DNA of 64,000 bases from an uncultured virus (IMG/VR IMGVR_UViG_3300005683_000014). Its lineage: Duplodnaviria > Heunggongvirae > Uroviricota > Caudoviricetes. The notes under the pieces were generated by a model, which was not told where the DNA came from, did not search any database, and saw only the letters and a list, made by a program, of their open reading frames with translations. The position numbers were made by a program, and so were the translations under genes. The first letter of the stretch is position 1; each line of letters starts with the position of its first letter. The stretch lies in IMG/VR virus record IMGVR_UViG_3300005683_000014; one strand, 5' to 3'. This document shows positions 7,413 to 60,562 of this stretch, one piece after another.

Positions 7413-7466
7413 CCACAAGCTCAAGGCCCTCACCAAAGGTTGAGCATGCAATTCACGAGGTACACA

Positions 7467-7991
7467 ATGCAAGCACGTACTGTCCCCGCGTCGGAGGTCA
7501 AGGACAACCTTGCCCTCGACATCAAGTCCTACTTCAATCAGGCAGAGGGGGAGAACCCCTCTACCTTGGGAAGCATGCTCGCGAAGCCCAAGGCGGTCCT
7601 GATTCCCCCTCTGTCCACGCAGGACAAGACCCTGCGCGGGCTCTACGACTACGTGGTGCGGAACAGGACCGACGCCGCGTTCATCCGCAAGCTTGCCAAG
7701 AGCATCGACGCGTTCGCGGCCGAGCGCGCCATCGACGCGGAAATCGAACAGCTCACGGCGTCCAGCAAGGACGTGGTGCTGACCTGTCACTCAAACATCA
7801 ACAAGATCCAGTGCATCAAGTACATCCGTGAGTACACCGGCCTGGGTCTGCGAGAGGCCAAGGACATTGCCGACGCCGCGCACGCGTACGGTAAGACGAC
7901 CATCGGCGGGACTTGGGACGCTGAGGATTTCCAGCGCTTCCAGCAAGGCCTCGTCAACTCGGGCTGCGGCTACACCGCGAGTCGACCGTGA
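7467..7991 (+). CDS. Protein with ribosomal protein bL12 (L7/L12) C-terminal domain
   Basis: NKIQCIKYIREYTGLGLREAKDIAD versus bL12 consensus KIxVIKxVRxxTGLGLKEAKxLV. Confidence 0.75.
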   Translation: MQARTVPASEVKDNLALDIKSYFNQAEGENPSTLGSMLAKPKAVLIPPLSTQDKTLRGLYDYVVRNRTDAAFIRKLAKSIDAFAAERAIDAEIEQLTASSKDVVLTCHSNINKIQCIKYIREYTGLGLREAKDIADAAHAYGKTTIGGTWDAEDFQRFQQGLVNSGCGYTASRP

Positions 7992-11169: not shown

Positions 11170-12250
11170 GGAATGGTGGGCTGGTACCGGAGAAGCCTCT
11201 GCACCCTGCTGTGATAAGCCCAACAAACGGGTGCATGACTTGAACCGCCCATGCCCTATTTGTGCCCCGTCCCCTGAAAACACCCGCCCCCCTGTACATA
11301 CCGGGGGAGGGTAATGACGGGGGTAGGGTAACGAATTCGCGTTCCATCCTCCCCTCTCCTGTGTCCTAAGGCTTACACACGACCCTGGTCCTGCTCCTGT
11401 TCGAGGCGCGGGACTGGGGTCGTTGCGTTTCTGGATTGGAGCTGGATCGGGATCCCGGGGAGCCCCTTGAGAGGGTTCAGCAAACCGCCTCCGAGGTCCC
11501 TGGCAAACTTGCCCAGGCGCATGCCCCCAAGGCCCAGCAAGGCGTGTCCAGGCAGAAGGGGAGGCTACCCTACGCACTTTGGACTCGACGCGTCCTGGGG
11601 CCTTCTGAGCGCGTTCTGGGACCCGGCGTCCGGGAACTACCAATTCATAAGTGAATTAATAGGTGAGTAGTAGTTCATCATCAGCAGAACTTATGGATGC
11701 CCTAGCAATCGAACTACTCCAACAAGTTCGTGGCGTTGCGCGCCATGTGCAAAGAATACACATGGTGTGTACAGATTCACCCACAAGCTGCGCAGCCCGA
11801 CCTCGTGCAGGAGAACAAGCTCTTGAAATCCCACCAAATTTTTCGAAAACGGTTTCGTTTCGAAACGCGAATCGGCCATGGGTATCGCTGTATCGAAATT
11901 CATTCCGTATCAGAAAAATTATCCCACTATATCGGAGGGACCGGGTGCTCTGGGGGAGCGTGCTGGGGCCCGAGCGAGCGCCCGGTCGGGGCACCGAGTG
12001 ACTGCTCGGTCGCGACATCGATTTCGTGACCAGGCAGTTGCTCTTTCGGCCGAGCGACTGTTCGGTCACGGTATCAGTTTGCGACGCTCCCGAGCCGGGC
12101 TAGTAGGAAGGTATGAACGCGCCCGAGCCCGGGCTAGTGTGAAAACAGTTTCGCACTAGCGAAAGCGCTTTCTCGCTTGCGACCGTGATAGGTGCGCAAA
12201 CGGTTGCACACTGAAACGGTTTCGGCACGGTCGCAAGCGGCTCGGCGCGT

Positions 12251-12266
12251 TGGCATTGCGCTTGCT
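12251..12266 (+). promoter_or_regulatory. Sigma54-like -24/-12 promoter at the start of the island
   Basis: TGGCATTGCGCTTGCT, exact GG-N10-GC spacing. Confidence 0.55.
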
Positions 12267-12316
12267 CACTCTCTGCCCGTTCGCGGCGCAAGCCCGAACC
12301 TAGGCGAGCGTTCCCC

Positions 12317-12387
12317 GGCTCACTAGAGCCCGCGTCTTTGTCCCTTGGCTTATTCCTAGCGCCAAGCGACGCGGGCTCTAATGAGCC
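12317..12387 (+). repeat. Island spacer hairpin unit 1
   Basis: GGCTCACTAGAGCCCGCGTC / GACGCGGGCTCTAATGAGCC, 20-bp stem with one mismatch. Confidence 0.85.
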
Positions 12388-12416
12388 GCAATCAAGCGGT
12401 TTCCGGAGGTTCTAAG

Positions 12417-12587
12417 ATGTATCCGACCGATGCTGAATGGTCCGCTTTCATGGTCGAAATCGCTCCCTTCCCTTGGCTCGGGCAATTAAAGCCCGCGCCG
12501 AGCAAGCCCGAGCACAAGCCCGAGCCCGAGCCGATGTTCACGGCTCGCGCGGTCAAGGGTTTCGACCCGTTCGATTCTGACGATTGA
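12417..12587 (+). CDS. Island cassette ORF, small hypothetical protein
   Basis: GGAGGT RBS; MYPTDAEW...KPEPEP. Confidence 0.65.
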   Translation: MYPTDAEWSAFMVEIAPFPWLGQLKPAPSKPEHKPEPEPMFTARAVKGFDPFDSDD

Positions 12588-12589
12588 AC

Positions 12590-12660
12590 CCGGGCTCGGG
12601 AGCATGGCTCCCGGGCTCAATTGAGCCTGTTAGCTAGCTGCTAGCGGGCTCACTTGAGCC
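12590..12660 (+). repeat. Island spacer two-hairpin unit 2
   Basis: GGCTCGGGAGC-ATG-GCTCCCGGGCT then GGCTCAATTGAGCCTGTTAG...CTAGCGGGCTCACTTGAGCC. Confidence 0.9.
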
Positions 12661-12708
12661 GATACCGGTTCCGTTCGCCAACCCAGCTTCCCAAACAATG
12701 AGGTTCCA

Positions 12709-13323
12709 ATGTACGCGTTCCCGTTCCCGTCCTTTCTCGCCTTTCTGGCTTTCATCTTCACGGCCTTCCTGTTCATCGGCGCGGTCGTCATGGCGCGCGA
12801 GACGTTCCGGGCGCACAAGCTCGGGCGCGAGTCGGGCGCACTGAAGCTGCACAAGCTCCGCCGTTCCTTCTACAGCGTGCGCGCCGAGCTTGTGGCTTGG
12901 CTCGCGGCTCGCGTGAAAGAGCGCGGGCTCAAGTGGATTGCAACCGACAACGCGCCCGATACGTTTGAGCGGCTCATGAGCGAGACTAGCGCAACGCGCA
13001 TGCTCGTTAGCCCCGCAATCGCTGATAACTACTTCGGCAACGCGTATGACTCCAATATGTTCCAAGCGTGGCACGATTCAGAGCACCATCGCACGGGCTT
13101 CGATTTCAGCGAAGCCGGGGAAGCGGCTCTTACCACGGACCATATGCGCGAGGCTAAGCGCACTGGCCTTAGCAGCGCGGCTCGCGCGATGCTGAAAGCG
13201 GCCGTTATGACGCGCGTTCGCTATTACTTTCGCCACAACCGCTTTCCGACCCGTCAAAGCGCTATGCTTTGGCTCGCGTTCGCGTATGGCGAATCGGCCG
13301 CGTTGGCTAACGCGAGCCTGTAA
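12709..13323 (+). CDS. Island cassette ORF, N-terminal TM plus FQAWHDxxH putative metal-binding domain
   Basis: GAGGT RBS; MFQAWHDSEHH...F...GE motif. Confidence 0.7.
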   Translation: MYAFPFPSFLAFLAFIFTAFLFIGAVVMARETFRAHKLGRESGALKLHKLRRSFYSVRAELVAWLAARVKERGLKWIATDNAPDTFERLMSETSATRMLVSPAIADNYFGNAYDSNMFQAWHDSEHHRTGFDFSEAGEAALTTDHMREAKRTGLSSAARAMLKAAVMTRVRYYFRHNRFPTRQSAMLWLAFAYGESAALANASL

Positions 13324-13399
13324 GCCTACCTGCTAGAGCCCGGGCGCGTTGCTTGGGCTCGCCTCCCCTACCTCTAACCCTTCACTCCCGAGGTAATCA

Positions 13400-13639
13400 A
13401 TGAAGCTCCCGAACCCTGTTCCCGTCGTCAAGCGCGCGCTCCCCGGGCGCGCTTGGGTTGACACGTTCCGCTTGGCGTTCGCGCCCGGAGCCGCGTTGCT
13501 TGCGCTTGACCATGGCAACCCTGCGATGTTCGTTATCACGGTTGTTTCCGTGGGCTTGGCGCACGGTATCCACAAACACTTGCGCAAGGCGGCGCACAAG
13601 CGCAAAACCGCGCGCAAGGCGGCGCATAACCGCCACTAA
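13400..13639 (+). CDS. Island cassette ORF, membrane protein with basic tail
   Basis: GAGGT RBS. Confidence 0.65.
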   Translation: MKLPNPVPVVKRALPGRAWVDTFRLAFAPGAALLALDHGNPAMFVITVVSVGLAHGIHKHLRKAAHKRKTARKAAHNRH

Positions 13640-13642
13640 TCG

Positions 13643-13754
13643 CCCGGCTCGGGAGCTTAGCTCCCGGGCTCAATTGAGCCTGCTAGCGTTCCTGCTAGCG
13701 CTGATAGCGGAGACCGCCAACGGTAGGCGCTTCGCTAGCAGGCTCACTTGAGCC
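13643..13754 (+). repeat. Island spacer two-hairpin unit 3 (expanded loop)
   Basis: GGCTCGGGAGC-TTA-GCTCCCGG; GGCTCAATTGAGCCTGCTAGCG...CGCTAGCAGGCTCACTTGAGCC. Confidence 0.9.
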
Positions 13755-13783
13755 TATCTCGGGCTCTAACGGAGGTAATCTCT

Positions 13784-13996
13784 ATGGCAATCAAGGGTAA
13801 GGTTATGAACGGGCAGAATATGCCCGAAACCACGTTCGGAACGCTCGGCGGGGTCGGGCAGAACAGCGGCTCGGCGCGTCAATGGCGCGGTTCCGACCCG
13901 GCTCCGGGCTTGGCCGCATTCCTTTCCGAGCTTGGGTTCGGGCCCGAGCCCGAGCCCGAGCCCGGGCTTATGCTCGGGCCTTGGTTCAAGCGTTGA
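13784..13996 (+). CDS. Island cassette ORF, hypothetical protein
   Basis: GGAGGT RBS; GPEPEPEPG. Confidence 0.65.
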   Translation: MAIKGKVMNGQNMPETTFGTLGGVGQNSGSARQWRGSDPAPGLAAFLSELGFGPEPEPEPGLMLGPWFKR

Positions 13997-13999
13997 CAA

Positions 14000-14070
14000 C
14001 CGGGCTCGGGAGCCATGCTCCCGGGCTCAATTGAGCCTGTTAGACGCGTTCTAGCGGGCTCACTTGAGCC
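14000..14070 (+). repeat. Island spacer two-hairpin unit 4
   Basis: Near-identical to unit 2, differing only in the loops. Confidence 0.9.
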
Positions 14071-14099
14071 TTACCCTGTTCTCAATCTAAAGAGGTTCT

Positions 14100-14450
14100 A
14101 TGGCGCGAATTCTGAGGCTACAGAATGCTGCGGGCGATGGTCCTTACTCCAATTTTGAATGGCACAACCCGGCAACGCTGTATACTACGCTTGCTAACCG
14201 GCCGTTGCCTCCCGGGGATTTGCTTTGGAATATGCAAATGGGTTGGAACGGAGCCCGCGAATATCGGTTCGGCTTCCGCAACGTGAAGCAAGCCCGCGCA
14301 TGGTTTAATGATGCGGGCGAACGGAAACGGCTCCGGGCGCTTGGATACCGGTTCCGTTGGGTTAACGGAACCATCGCGGGCGATGACGGTAAACAGGTTT
14401 GGTTCAAGCCCGAGCCCGAGCCCGAAACCCGTTCAAGTGAGGTATCATGA
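14100..14450 (+). CDS. Island cassette ORF, phage early protein (RxxNxxGxGPY...FGF...WF...QVxF pattern)
   Basis: GAGGT RBS; motif pattern. Confidence 0.7.
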   Translation: MARILRLQNAAGDGPYSNFEWHNPATLYTTLANRPLPPGDLLWNMQMGWNGAREYRFGFRNVKQARAWFNDAGERKRLRALGYRFRWVNGTIAGDDGKQVWFKPEPEPETRSSEVS

Positions 14451-14764
14451 AAGGCTTTAATTTCGTCATTCTCCCTACGGCCGGACCGCTCGGGAACCCG
14501 ATTCCCGAAAGCGAGCTGGAACCGTGGTATAACTCGGCGCGAGCCGCGTTCGCTAACGCTTTCGGAGGCTATACAGAATCCGAGGCGCTTGGCGGTTGGG
14601 TTGCGGGCTCGGGCTTCACGGTTTCCGAACCCGTGCGAATCCTAGAGGCTTTCGGCGACGATAAGCCCGAGGTTCGGGCGCGCGTTGCTCAAACGCTGAA
14701 AGCCGGGCTCGGGCAAGCGGCCGTCATGGTTGGCTTTAAGCCCGGCTCGGCCGAATTCATCTAA
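14447..14764 (+). CDS. Island cassette ORF, SAM lyase/DUF3574-like ferredoxin-fold protein
   Basis: FGGYT...GGW...G..VSEPV...LGQAAVMV; ATGA overlap, GAGGT RBS. Confidence 0.55.
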   Translation: MKGFNFVILPTAGPLGNPIPESELEPWYNSARAAFANAFGGYTESEALGGWVAGSGFTVSEPVRILEAFGDDKPEVRARVAQTLKAGLGQAAVMVGFKPGSAEFI

Positions 14765-14842
14765 CCGGGCTCGGGAGCATGGCTCCCGGGCTCACTTTCG
14801 CGTCATAGGCTCGGGCTCGGGCTTGTGGCGCGAACGTGAGCC
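14765..14842 (+). repeat. Island spacer two-hairpin unit 5 (covaried stem)
   Basis: Same first hairpin; GGCTCAC-T-TTCGCGTCATAGGC / GCTTGTGGCGCGAA-C-GTGAGCC. Confidence 0.85.
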
Positions 14843-14872
14843 TGATTCCCCTACTCTGTCAACGGAGGTTCT

Positions 14873-15190
14873 ATGTTCGGTTTCTCGCCTCTTTCGCCCG
14901 CTTACGGCCGCGATTACAAGTCGACGGCCGAAATCATCCGGGATTGGAACGCCGGAAAGGATTTCATGACGCCGGGCGGTTCCTATGCCAACCGCGATGA
15001 TGCTGTCAACGCGGGCTTGCGTAGCGTCAACGTGCGCTATGACAAGCTCCGCAAGGTCGCGGTTCTGAAGCTCGGCGCCGATGGAAAAGCGCCCGAGCCG
15101 AAACCGCGCGCCAAGCGCCCGAGCAAGCCCGCGCCGAGCACGGCTCCCGAGCCCGAGCCTTACGATAGCGCTATCATCGCGGGTAGCTAA
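14873..15190 (+). CDS. Island cassette ORF, PAYGRDYKS-motif phage protein
   Basis: GGAGGT RBS; LSPAYGRDYKS...GKDF...VRY. Confidence 0.7.
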   Translation: MFGFSPLSPAYGRDYKSTAEIIRDWNAGKDFMTPGGSYANRDDAVNAGLRSVNVRYDKLRKVAVLKLGADGKAPEPKPRAKRPSKPAPSTAPEPEPYDSAIIAGS

Positions 15191-15213
15191 TGGTTATCAT
15201 CGGGCTTAACCTC

Positions 15214-15264
15214 TCGCCCGGCTCAACTCGGGAGNNNNNNNNNCTCCCGAGTTGAGCCGGGCGA
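15214..15264 (+). repeat. Island spacer hairpin unit 6, spanning a scaffold gap
   Basis: TCGCCCGGCTCAACTCGGGAG-(N gap)-CTCCCGAGTTGAGCCGGGCGA. Confidence 0.6.
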
Positions 15265-15312
15265 ATCAACGCGCAACGGTCAACTCTACAACGTTCTGGC
15301 TCCGGAGGTTCA

Positions 15313-15489
15313 ATGCTTCGAATCCTGCTAGCGCTCGGCGCCATGCTCGGCGCATGCGACGTCAACCCGCTCTATGAGCCCGGTTGCGACGTGGTAAACG
15401 TTACGCGTGACGCGCCGAGCTTCTACTCGCTCAATCCAACGGAGCCCGGTGCGCTCATGAGCGATGCTGTAGACCGGGCGCTTGCCTAG
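15313..15489 (+). CDS. Island cassette ORF, 58-aa lipoprotein (not in ORF track)
   Basis: GGAGGT RBS; MLRILLALGAMLGAC lipobox. Confidence 0.7.
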   Translation: MLRILLALGAMLGACDVNPLYEPGCDVVNVTRDAPSFYSLNPTEPGALMSDAVDRALA

Positions 15490-15566
15490 CCAAAGGACAC
15501 TAGCCCGGGCTAACTCGGGAGGTTCCTTAGCTAGCGCGGGCTCCAAACCTCGGGAGGCTTACGCGC

Positions 15567-15623
15567 ATGTATATACTTGCAGCGTTGCTAATCTTGGCTA
15601 TGGCGTTCGGCCGTTGCCTCTAA
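15567..15623 (+). CDS. Possible 18-aa hydrophobic peptide
   Basis: GGAGG RBS; MYILAALLILAMAFGRCL. Confidence 0.35.
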   Translation: MYILAALLILAMAFGRCL

Positions 15624-16059
15624 TTTCCTAGGTGCGGACGCAAGGCCTGCTAACCCGTGAAGGCTAGCAGGCCCTTTGCGTTTCTAGCCCGGGCGCGTGG
15701 TAGGGTAGGGGAAGGGTAGCCTTGCCCTAGTCGACGCGTTAGAGCGCTTCCTAGACGCGTTCTAAGCGAACCTGCTAGCAGCTTCACTTGAGCCCGAGCA
15801 AGCAAACGGTTTCGCACTAGCAGGGGAGCAACGGCCTTGACCGTCAACCCAAGCGTGCCGATGGTAGGGGAGCCGGGCTGCTAGCTTCTAATCGGTTCCT
15901 GTTCACTGGGTTTCTCAGGCCGAACGCGGCCCGCGCGCTAGAGCCCGCGGAGACAGTTTCAAGGGCTTGCACTAGCGAAAGCCCTTCGGAGCCTTATTCT
16001 AGGCCGTCTAGCGCGGTTCTGAAACGATTTCCGAGAGCGCGAGCGAGAGCGAGAGGCGT

Positions 16060-17800: not shown

Positions 17801-18046
17801 ACTAATTGACTAAAACGGGTCGAGGGCGCTGCCGCGTTCCCCAAGGAGCCTGACCGTTTCCGTTCACTCACTACCTAAACGGCAGACACGCCCTCGACCC
17901 AGACCTCACCATACATGGTGTATCGGGACCGAGCAAGCGCTCGGTGAGGAGCACATCAATTTAGATTCAAGGGCTCCCGGCGAGTGTGTAGGAATTACAC
18001 ACGCCCCCGGCTCGGAATTAAACGACAGGTGTTCAATTCTTGGGCT

Positions 18047-18646
18047 TAATGCACTCTAGACCCTCAAGTGCATTTAGCCTCGCTCGTGTCATTCCGGGCA
18101 CTTAGGTAATGAAAACACATGTCCGCGGCCTCGGGCGCGGTCGAACCCATATGCACTTAGAAAGCCCAATGGAGACGGGGAGTTGGGACCTAAGTGCCTT
18201 TAGGGTTTCTGTAACCCAAACCTAAATGCACTCGGCGCGACCGCGCCCCAGGCCGGGATGAGGACTCTGGTGCATTAAAACAAGTGCATTATCCCGTTCC
18301 CCTCCATACACGTACGGAGAATGGGATTAACGTAATACGTTAACCACCGACGCCCGCAGCTCCCAACTTTCTCAGGAAGGTAATCGGGATAATGCACTTA
18401 ATTTATAGCACTTGTCGGCTAACCCTACGGAAGTACAGGGGAATCTAAGTGCATTGCGCCGCGGGTTACAGAAACCTCAAATGCACTCGTCTCCGAACTA
18501 CCGAGAATCACAGTGCTTTTCTCGGTGCATTTAGGGGTTCCCCGCCATGGGCGCGGTCGCGAGCCCCTTCTGCCTCGTAAGTAGGCGGAATCTTTGAGAC
18601 CATAAGTGCATTTACGCATTGTAACTTTCCCGTGGAGTGCATTTAG
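18047..18646. repeat. Iteron-like array (AAGTGCATTTAG) with nested inverted repeats; putative origin or packaging region
   Basis: About 14 GTGCATT/AATGCAC-type copies in both orientations in non-coding DNA. Confidence 0.75.
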
Positions 18647-18702
18647 AGCCGGCGCCGGCCCCTCGGAAAGGAATTAACAGACTCCGTTAATCCTGCTAGG
18701 AT

Positions 18703-59948: not shown

Positions 59949-60338
59949 ATGAGCGAGACTGAGAACAAGAACGAGAAGATCCCGAAGCCCCCGATCGATT
60001 CGGTGACCTTCGTGGGCTACAAGGGCGGTGAGTTGGTGTGGAACACGGTCGAGACGCGCGCGAGCAAGGAGGAGGATTCGGTCCTTCTCAACGCCAAGAC
60101 GTGGCCGAACGTGCGCAAGTTGCACTGCACGTACGATCGCATCCGGTCGGCCCCGTTTGAGGTGCAGGATGGTGAGTTGTACGCCGGTGCCGATCTGGAT
60201 GCTGCGCTGAAGGGCATGGCGTTCTTCTATGACAAGAAGATCGAGCGCCTGACCAAGCATCGCACTCGCGTCCAGGAGCTGGGCGAGGCGATGAGTGAGA
60301 ACTGCGTCGAGGTGCTCAAGGAAGCGAGGGCTCAGTGA
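59949..60338 (+). CDS. Hypothetical protein
   Basis: GAGGAG RBS. Confidence 0.7.
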
Positions 60339-60562
60339 ATCCATTTCTGAATTTCGGGCAGGCGCTCGAACTGCTCAAGAGTGGACAAAGGGTCGCTCGT
60401 CAGGGGTGGAACGGTAAGGGCATGTGGCTCGCTCTACAGCGTCCCGATGTGAACAGCAAGATGTCCCTGCCGTACATCTACATGAGCACGGTCACCGGTG
60501 ATCTCGTGCCGTGGCTGGCGTCCCAAACGGACGTCCTGGCCGAGGACTGGATCTCCGTGTGA
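60335..60562 (+). CDS. tad2: DUF2829/Tad2-family anti-defence nucleotide-signal sponge
   Basis: [25 protein letters not shown]...[14 protein letters not shown]. Confidence 0.85.

Follow-up and report, generated by a model that had tools for sequence, protein, structure and literature searches.

The 64,000-nucleotide (nt) stretch of DNA analysed here, called the window, comes from an uncultured tailed phage (IMG/VR record IMGVR_UViG_3300005683_000014; Caudoviricetes) and carries an array of nine small genes separated by a module of about 75 nt, made of two abutting hairpins and present in four full copies. The hairpins fold stably and covary, their wobble pairs are biased towards the coding strand, their distances to the flanking genes are constrained, and near-identical phages have or lack single genes right beside them. 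Our tentative reading, to which we give a probability of about 45%, is that the modules are intercistronic RNA processing and stabilising elements of an early or accessory operon. In their anatomy they would resemble the RNase III sites of phage T7, set in a hyperplastic region similar to the promoter-early stem-loop (PeSL) regions of T4-type phages. We infer co-transcription of the genes, cleavage at the modules and stabilisation of the resulting messages from these features. The window represents most of a phage contig of ~73 kb, of which ~9.4 kb lies outside it.

A two-hairpin module between small co-oriented genes

Nine open reading frames (ORFs) of 18–204 amino acids (aa) were found on the + strand at 12.4–15.6 kb. 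GAGGT precedes the ATG by 6–9 nt in eight of them, and the ninth has GGGAGG. This agrees with an earlier note, made from the letters of this DNA, which had described short co-oriented ORFs with a (G)GAGGT ribosome-binding site (RBS). Between these genes, the short hairpin GGCTCGGGAGC-N3-GCTCCCGGGCT (a 25-nt pattern) occurs in four copies, at 12593, 13646, 14003 and 14768, all on the + strand and without a mismatch, and it was found in none of 100 shuffles. It had been placed directly after stop codons, and this is where the four exact copies stand: the conserved block begins 2, 3, 3 and 0 nt after the stop codon in the four full modules. The loop of the short hairpin reads ATG in units 2 and 5 and CAT in unit 4. 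A 33-nt block, which comprises the short hairpin and the stem base, is nearly identical across the four full modules though the upper stems have diverged. When the 3' arm of the long stem is absent, the short hairpin lengthens from 7 to 12 base pairs (bp) (12592–12618 in unit 2), with a folding energy of −23.6 kcal/mol.

Six related spacers had been counted, and they proved unequal. Four are full modules. Unit 2 (12590–12660) joins a short hairpin (12597–12613) to a long hairpin (12614–12660), and unit 3 (13643–13754) has a short hairpin followed by a long hairpin with a longer, branched top (13667–13754). Unit 4 (14000–14070) carries the CAT loop and a long hairpin at 14024–14070, while unit 5 (14765–14842) has the same short hairpin as unit 2 and a long hairpin (14789–14842) with a different, covarying upper stem. 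Unit 1 (12317–12387) consists of a long hairpin only (7 bp, C.A at position 7, 13 bp and a 31-nt top) and lies 29 nt before the ATG of ORF1; on its upstream side there is neither a short hairpin nor an ORF. Unit 6 (15214–15264) is a different element, a lone perfect hairpin whose arms measure at least 21 nt and whose loop reads N in the window. It has GGCTCAA and CTCGGGAG in common with the module, that is, words of both hairpins. All six units are on the + strand.

Fold, covariation and strand bias of the long hairpin

Folded as RNA, the five long hairpins reach z scores of −5.0 to −8.9, and none of 200 shuffles was as stable in any of the five units, in keeping with the folding claimed for them before. 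A window-wide scan placed the longest inverted repeats of the window in the array region. The long stem has 21–25 bp, arranged as 7 bp, a 1×1 defect and at least 13 bp, which amounts to about two helical turns. Stem pairs were numbered from the base, and MAFFT registered 14 of them, the 3' arms being not alignable beyond this point. The first six pairs are invariant (GGCTCA/TGAGCC). Over the lowest 14 pairs, five have changed on both sides (positions 7, 9, 10, 11 and 14) and eight are invariant. In this alignment 92.9% of the cells pair, compared to 10–41% when the partner is slid by 1–3 columns, and the covariation score was reached by none of 500 shuffles. Pairing and further double changes extend to positions 20–25. 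One helix defect is present in each of the five stems, U.C at position 8 in units 2–5 and C.A at position 7 in unit 1, and the neighbouring pairs differ. Both the U.C mismatch and the A-U to C-G change at position 7 of unit 5, as given in the earlier note, were seen.

The same note had stated that G.U pairs occur on the plus strand only and that structure is selected in plus-strand nucleic acid. We found nine wobble cells on the + strand only and one on the − strand only. The first statement thus becomes a 9:1 bias, from which two units stand apart: the C.A of unit 1 would be a G.U on the minus strand, and unit 3 is symmetric. The second is supported by the covariation, the defect found in five of five stems and the 9:1 wobble ratio, with units 1 and 3 departing from it, and we regard selection on the structure of the coding (+) strand as supported. 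Under RNA parameters the + strand has the advantage, of 9.4 kcal/mol in unit 2, 7.7 in unit 4 and 16.2 in unit 5, whereas under DNA parameters the difference in these units is just 2.7, 2.3 and 4.8 kcal/mol. This contrast favours structure at the RNA level, though not cleanly.

Gene presence and absence beside the modules

The whole stretch was present in run X1 (bioreactor sludge), from which it may derive, and four estuary runs of one other study (X2–X5) held 7–18% of its words at a depth of 2–5. Runs X1–X4 were compared with the stretch at 80% likeness. Pieces at least 99% identical to it (7 of 17 from X2 and 7 of 10 from X3) cover both flanks of the 4-kb island that holds the array, as well as parts of the array. 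One X2 contig lacks the + strand segment 12668–13362, which comprises the leader of ORF2, ORF2 and its 3' hairpin; its joint, 12667|13363, skips 695 nt and has a shorter side of only 22 nt, under the tool's caution line of 30. An X3 contig lacks 14077–14420 (+), that is, the leader of ORF5 and ORF5 except its last ten codons, with a joint at 14076|14421 that skips 344 nt and has a shorter side of 77 nt. Neither joint shares letters between its two sides, which makes a repeat-driven assembly collapse unlikely. The left breakpoint of the ORF2 cassette lies within the 15-mer GATACCGGTTCCGTT (12661–12675), of which an exact second copy stands inside ORF5, the other variable cassette (14344–14358).

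The ORF2 gap begins 7 nt past a long stem and stops 37 nt short of the next ATG; for the ORF5 gap these two distances are 6 and 26 nt. Therefore, in the variants, unit 2 directly serves ORF3 (at 44 nt) and unit 4 directly serves ORF6 (at 32 nt). The far ends of the gaps (13362 and 14420) are not in a module, and each indel touches one module. The content of G and C at third codon positions (GC3) of ORF5 is 0.59, the lowest of the eight ORFs longer than 50 aa (0.66–0.79 in ORFs 1–4 and 6–8), and TCCCCTAC is shared by the leader of ORF3 and the leader after unit 5. Both would fit an insertion into a pre-existing unit of module, leader and gene.

Cassette exchange at attC-like sites had been one of three roles suggested for the module, and part of it stands, namely that near-identical phages differ by single genes beside modules. 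In a broader form, the modules would be structure-specific DNA recombination sites, + strand hairpins or cruciforms of single-stranded DNA at which an integron-integrase-like or HUH/Y1-like recombinase inserts cassettes a few nt 3' of the stem. Both cassette-size gaps indeed begin 6–7 nt past the 3' end of the long hairpin, and the ATG loop of units 2 and 5 is the reverse complement of the CAT loop of unit 4, which is what a palindrome flip would produce. Like attC sites, the modules are imperfect inverted repeats with conserved ends, a variable centre and a strand-specific fold, placed after each ORF of a row of co-oriented cassettes, and their helix defect is conserved. The arms of unit 6 read exactly RYYYAAC/GTTRRRY, the attC consensus.

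Unit 6 is, however, the only one to do so. The four full modules miss this core by one base per side (GCTCAAT/CTTGAGC, 6/7 on each side, in units 2–4), and the deviation is larger in units 1 and 5. Bulged bases are absent, the breakpoints lie 6–7 nt outside the stem and hence beyond the R' core, and the far gap ends are not at a module. The strand difference is small under DNA parameters, and the favoured strand is the top (coding) one, whereas attC uses the bottom strand. Pfam scans of 66 window ORFs and PHROGs scans of 20 large and eight array ORFs gave no match to an integrase, serine recombinase, HUH protein or other recombinase, nor to an RNA polymerase, RNase III or helix-turn-helix regulator. 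On these grounds the modules were rejected as attC-like sites, and we consider the broader form quite improbable. The boldest explanation, to which we give a very low probability, would make the modules landing pads of a gene-capture system of the phage. An enzyme that reads hairpins would act on the coding strand in single-stranded form and insert promoterless cassettes 6–7 nt 3' of the long hairpin. If it were true, the 5' end of each captured gene's message would automatically be processed, its ribosome-binding leader and 3' stabiliser would be supplied as well, and a lytic phage would possess an integron-like platform for early accessory genes.

Position of the modules and transcription signals

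In all four full modules the long stem begins 24–27 nt past the stop codon. The distance from its end to the ATG is 29, 29, 29 and 30 nt in four of the five units, and 48 nt in unit 2, which precedes the variable ORF2 cassette. Unit 1, which has no gene upstream, lacks the short hairpin, and ORF2, which has no long hairpin downstream, has a 10-bp GC hairpin of its own (13336–13360, + strand, 12 nt after its stop codon). It follows that the short hairpin is associated with the gene before it, at that gene's 3' end, and the long hairpin with the gene after it, on the 5' side.

No sigma-70-like −35/−10 pair scoring at least 8/12 was detected in any module, with a consensus that may not be that of the host. 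There is no U-tract at any module, the short hairpin running into the long stem and the long stem into mixed sequence, and no AT-rich stretch around the upstream stop codon, since GC-rich sequence begins with the first base past the stop codon. The only array hairpin with a U-rich tail lies at 15644–15685 (+ strand). It is terminator-like, with a 9-bp GC stem (hairpin 15644–15673) followed by CUUUGCGUUUCU; a strict terminator scan did not catch it, and we propose it as the end of the transcription unit. Modules devoid of a sigma-70-like promoter and of a U-tract, together with this closing hairpin, would be consistent with a single transcription unit.

Promoters of the N4 or Frpo type, made of single-stranded DNA, were another of the three suggested roles. 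An N4-type hairpin promoter requires a virion RNA polymerase of ~3,500 aa. The window has no phage RNA polymerase and the ~9.4 kb that remain of the contig are too short for one of the N4 type. This role has no support.

T4-type phages carry PeSL motifs (Arbiol et al., 2010, PMC2839356; Comeau et al., 2014, PMC4122927), which are the closest described analogue of the module and of which the earlier note made no mention. PeSLs are, like our modules, repeated stem-loop motifs of 50–100 nt that reach from the stop codon of a small ORFan to the next Shine-Dalgarno sequence, in plastic or hyperplastic regions where close relatives differ by single adjacent genes; their recombination has been argued to make them anchors for gene exchange (PMC2839356). 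The modules could then be composite terminator/promoter cassettes in which the hairpin or hairpins stop upstream transcription, a host promoter lies in or after the long hairpin, each gene is its own unit and the conserved block serves as a recombination anchor. Besides the setting and the genes present or absent beside modules in near-identical phages, the constant 29–30 nt to the ATG would suit this explanation. In units 2–4, TTGAGCC-N12-13-(G/T)CTAGCG may be faintly similar to an alphaproteobacterial promoter consensus.

However, these two words are missing in units 1 and 5, where the hairpin is still kept, and the modules lack the −35/−10 pair (by a consensus that may not be the host's), the AT-rich stretch and the U-tract. 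A DNA promoter would need neither a G.U bias on the coding strand nor covariation along the whole stem. The architecture differs too, with two abutting hairpins, one of them of 21–25 bp with a conserved mismatch, and neither indel is bounded by two modules, each being bounded by one. Also, the present phage, with its tape-measure gene and contig of ~73 kb, is not T4-like. We therefore regard PeSL-like terminator/promoter cassettes as unlikely, at perhaps one chance in a handful.

Search for relatives of the module

Rfam returned no family for the module; its best match was a plant microRNA model (E 0.6; 22.8 bits vs a gathering score of 110). The earlier note had not recognised the module as a described family, and it fits neither a bacterial repeat family nor a U-tract terminator. 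A blastn search with 12000–16000 found no similar DNA in 50,697 phage records, and tblastn against the same records gave no match for the terminase at E 1e-10 and none for ORF5. In IMG/VR the module pattern had no match, and queries with ORF2, ORF5, the DHH phosphoesterase, the SNF2 helicase and the ORF2 alignment returned nothing. Against metagenome contigs, the ORF2 alignment found only the window's own contig (L001). Short matches of ~35 nt (13815–13850, 13928–13962, 14825 and 15097–15131) were GC-rich or hexamer-repeat matches from other organisms and were not used.

A motif scan of 185,579 species genomes yielded one locus, a lone hairpin between convergent ORFs in Methylobacterium segetis, which lacks the long stem and was rejected as a family member. 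The two-palindrome pattern matched two loci in IMG/VR, both in high-GC viral contigs. The first (L004, 2850–3150) is a run of GGCTCA/TGAGCC words within an ORF adjoining an FtsK/SpoIIIE-like gene; the second (L005, 3000–3080) is intergenic and contains GGCTCATTTGAGCC four times as direct repeats. As both loci lack the short hairpin as well as a long stem, they were rejected as the same module. These direct-repeat arrays of the 14-bp palindrome GGCTCA-NN-TGAGCC look like protein-binding arrays, not hairpin modules.

These searches bear on the idea that the units are selfish or neutral palindromic repeats, of the MITE or REP kind, which spread in the region without a role for the phage. They are, in fact, repeated palindromic copies within a compositionally odd 4-kb island, and module-like words inside the 3' ends of ORFs resemble decayed old copies (repeat families D2 and D19). 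Such repeats would hardly be expected to keep a single orientation and fixed distances to stop and start codons, and the species genomes scanned yielded only the lone Methylobacterium segetis hairpin without a long stem. No target-site duplications are visible. In the estuary contigs that fully cover units 3 and 4 (records 8, 21 and 16) these units show no differences while ORF3, ORF4 and ORF6 carry single-nucleotide polymorphisms, although the numbers are small. Altogether, we hold this origin to be very unlikely.

Proposed processing of the transcript and points against it

In the processing reading, the nine small genes would share one transcript, running from a promoter upstream of 12317 to the terminator-like hairpin at 15644–15685, in a hyperplastic region of early or accessory type. 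RNase III-type enzymes cut about two helical turns of near-perfect duplex. The long stem would be the cut site of a double-strand-specific host RNase of this type, and cutting would produce single-gene messages. The short GC hairpin would then be the 3' end of the upstream message. Once the cut is made, the short hairpin could take over the six bases at the start of the long stem, grow from 7 to 12 bp and block 3' exonucleases, and the downstream message would begin ~30 nt before its ATG. Because the 33-nt block is near-identical in the four full modules, the modules would also mark sites of gene gain and loss. Among the three roles suggested in the earlier note, processing sites would be the best anatomical fit.

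Several observations weigh against this reading. The near-100% sequence identity of the short hairpin exceeds what a stabiliser hairpin needs, and the identity of the 33-nt block points to a sequence-specific reader, or to gene conversion or recombination that homogenises the copies. Recombination of this kind would also make the modules handy anchors for gene exchange. The wobble pairs of units 2 and 4 are shared by descent, which brings the bias to ~7:1 independent events. Unit 3 has no strand preference (+ strand difference of −0.5 kcal/mol as RNA), and unit 1 prefers the minus strand as RNA (−53.2 vs −46.6 kcal/mol, a difference of −6.6). A promoter that is not of the sigma-70 type may lie inside the modules. 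All five structures come from one genome, and the covariation among these paralogous copies could partly reflect maintenance of palindromes at the DNA level. Indeed, each stem arm of units 2–4 is a 14-bp palindrome, GGCTCA-NN-TGAGCC, as expected for a dimeric DNA-binding protein, and part of the complementarity between arms in these units is automatic because each arm is a palindrome. Units 1 and 5 have lost the local palindromes and kept the long stem, which identifies the long stem as the conserved feature.

The palindromes could also be operators on double-stranded DNA, where a dimeric regulator bound to two 14-bp sites per spacer would shut the accessory genes off. Eight GGCTCA-NN-TGAGCC sites stand within 1.8 kb, compared to 0.12 matches expected window-wide, their centre-to-centre distances of 33, 74 and 33 bp (units 2, 3 and 4) are near whole helical turns, and the same palindrome forms the direct-repeat arrays of L004 and L005 described above. 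Units 5 and 6, however, keep a long stem without local palindromes, the sites of unit 1 are spaced differently, and no helix-turn-helix family was matched by any scanned ORF. Operators would also leave unexplained the pairing and covariation past position 14, the short hairpin and the strand-specific wobbles. We think it improbable that the modules are such operator pairs.

Genes of the array and surrounding DNA

All array genes lie on the + strand. ORF1 (12417–12587; 56 aa) has the RBS GGAGGT and a PEPEP motif, ORF3 (13400–13639; 79 aa) a hydrophobic segment and a basic tail, ORF4 (13784–13996; 70 aa) a PEPEPEP motif and ORF7 (14873–15190; 105 aa) a PEPEP motif; none of these four has a family match. 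ORF2 (12709–13323; 204 aa) has an N-terminal hydrophobic segment and matches phrog_33646 (E 9e-15), and ORF5 (14100–14450; 116 aa) matches phrog_1106 (E 2.2e-10), both phage families of unknown function. The start of ORF6 (14447–14764; 105 aa) overlaps the stop of ORF5 (ATGA). By eye, the translation of ORF8 (15313–15489; 58 aa) has an N-terminus like a lipoprotein signal (LGAC), and ORF9 (15567–15623), an 18-aa hydrophobic peptide, is uncertain as a real gene. Six of the eight array ORFs tested had no Pfam or PHROG match at E below 0.01. Several of the translations resemble small membrane proteins by eye.

Four unrelated ORFs (ORF1, 4, 5 and 7) have PEPEP close to their C-terminus, encoded by hexamer repeats, (CCCGAG)n, at 12506–12535, 13940–13968, 14407–14425 and 15086–15160. 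These repeats are the reverse complement of short-hairpin words. A 24-nt segment of ORF1 (12513–12536) is 96% complementary to the top of unit 5 (14804–14827).

In phage records, tblastn with ORF2 found nine relatives at 25–28% identity over 53–65% of the query, in five Marinomonas, three Vibrio and one Caulobacter phage, all of 44–45 kb. In Marinomonas phage CB5A (Autographiviridae), whose map was the single one inspected, the relative stands amid hypothetical genes upstream of the RNA polymerase gene, that is, in the early region. We take this to suggest an early-region context for the array as well. The sole relative of ORF2 in the protein database (P0002) is 59% identical and lies on a 77.5-kb contig.

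Among the window proteins are a large terminase, a capsid protein, a cement protein, a 1,200-aa tape-measure protein, an SNF2 helicase and a primase-polymerase, as well as a ribonucleotide reductase, a thymidylate synthase, a PD-(D/E)XK exonuclease, a VRR-NUC nuclease and a Tad2-like protein. Nearly all window genes are on the + strand. The tape-measure gene suggests a long-tailed phage, not a T4-like one.

The 4-kb island differs in composition from the rest of the window. Its 1,575 non-coding bases contain 27 CTAG, an observed/expected ratio of ~5, while in the rest of the window 39 were observed vs 222 expected (0.18). CCCGGG, GCTAGC and ACGCGT are enriched in the island and avoided elsewhere; within 12000–16030, for instance, there are 10 GCTAGC in 4 kb vs 3 in the other 60 kb, and 12 CCCGGG vs 15. 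CTCGAG has zero copies in the whole window. Of the 29 window copies of CCCGAGCC/GGCTCGGG, 21 are inside the island. This composition would reflect either a different origin or structure that overrides restriction-site avoidance.

Upstream of the array, ~1.1 kb (11170–12316) contain no convincing ORF and have no Rfam match. At 12044–12140 there is a tandem repeat of ~33 nt (GCTCCCGAGCCGGGCTAGT-like), whose copy number differs in estuary contigs (joints 12044→12104 and 12049→12090). A motif around AAACGGTTTCGCACTAGC(GAAAGC) has four + strand copies on both flanks of the array (12141–12170, 12196–12230, 15797–15825 and 15950–15990), and these may be promoters or binding sites of some factor.

Further away, 0.9 kb of non-coding DNA separates a minus-strand VRR-NUC block from a + strand HNH-like ORF, and within it, at 18040–18660, at least 12 copies of a motif near AAGTGCATTTAG / TAAATGCACT occur in both orientations. 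The cumulative GC skew climbs steadily from about this place, and the cluster is a candidate replication origin (iterons) or operator cluster. A 75-aa ORF (60335–60559) matches the Thoeris anti-defence Tad2-like domain (PF11195, E 1e-26). Two other ORFs, at 1923–2435 and 7440–7988, have weak matches to the SspB adaptor family (E 1.7e-5) and the C-terminal domain of ribosomal L7/L12 (E 1.6e-8). Adjacent tRNA-Met and tRNA-Tyr genes lie at 296–459, and a 17-bp hairpin downstream of a 551-aa gene is followed by TTTCTGG.

Known systems and meaning of the module

At the RNase III sites R0.3 to R1.3 of the T7 early region, the upstream message ends in a hairpin after cleavage. These irregular hairpins, each about two turns long and with a defect inside, lie between small early genes of one transcript; our modules share this anatomy and would share the common transcript. 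They differ in that a separate GC hairpin would give the 3' end and in that the defect is a 1×1 mismatch, not an internal loop. Also, there is no RNA polymerase gene in the window.

REP/BIME elements act as 3' stabilisers, and the Correia elements of Neisseria are RNase III substrates. Both are families of intercistronic hairpin repeats that act at the RNA level, which would be true of the module as well. However, they are chromosomal, with hundreds of copies in both orientations, whereas the module has four full copies in one orientation in one phage region. A literature search gave nothing usable on similar phage arrays of intercistronic hairpins or on Correia elements and RNase III. A motif similar to PeSLs, with a TATA box and an inverted repeat, is described for the haloarchaeal virus HGTV-1 (PMC3950731).

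Functionally, the T7 early RNase III sites and the PeSLs are nearest to the module, which is a member of neither. What is new is a distinct, promoterless two-hairpin architecture (as judged by the sigma-70 consensus) of a repeated regulatory spacer in a hyperplastic phage region. Genes for host takeover and counter-defence are replaced most rapidly in the accessory-gene regions of phages, and beyond T4-type phages little is understood of how a new gene can enter such a region and leave expression intact. If the processing reading is true, the module would be a second, structurally different solution to this problem, a portable RNA punctuation that gives neighbouring genes defined message ends. 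Genes come and go right beside the modules in nature, and this compact two-hairpin unit could possibly serve as an operon insulator.

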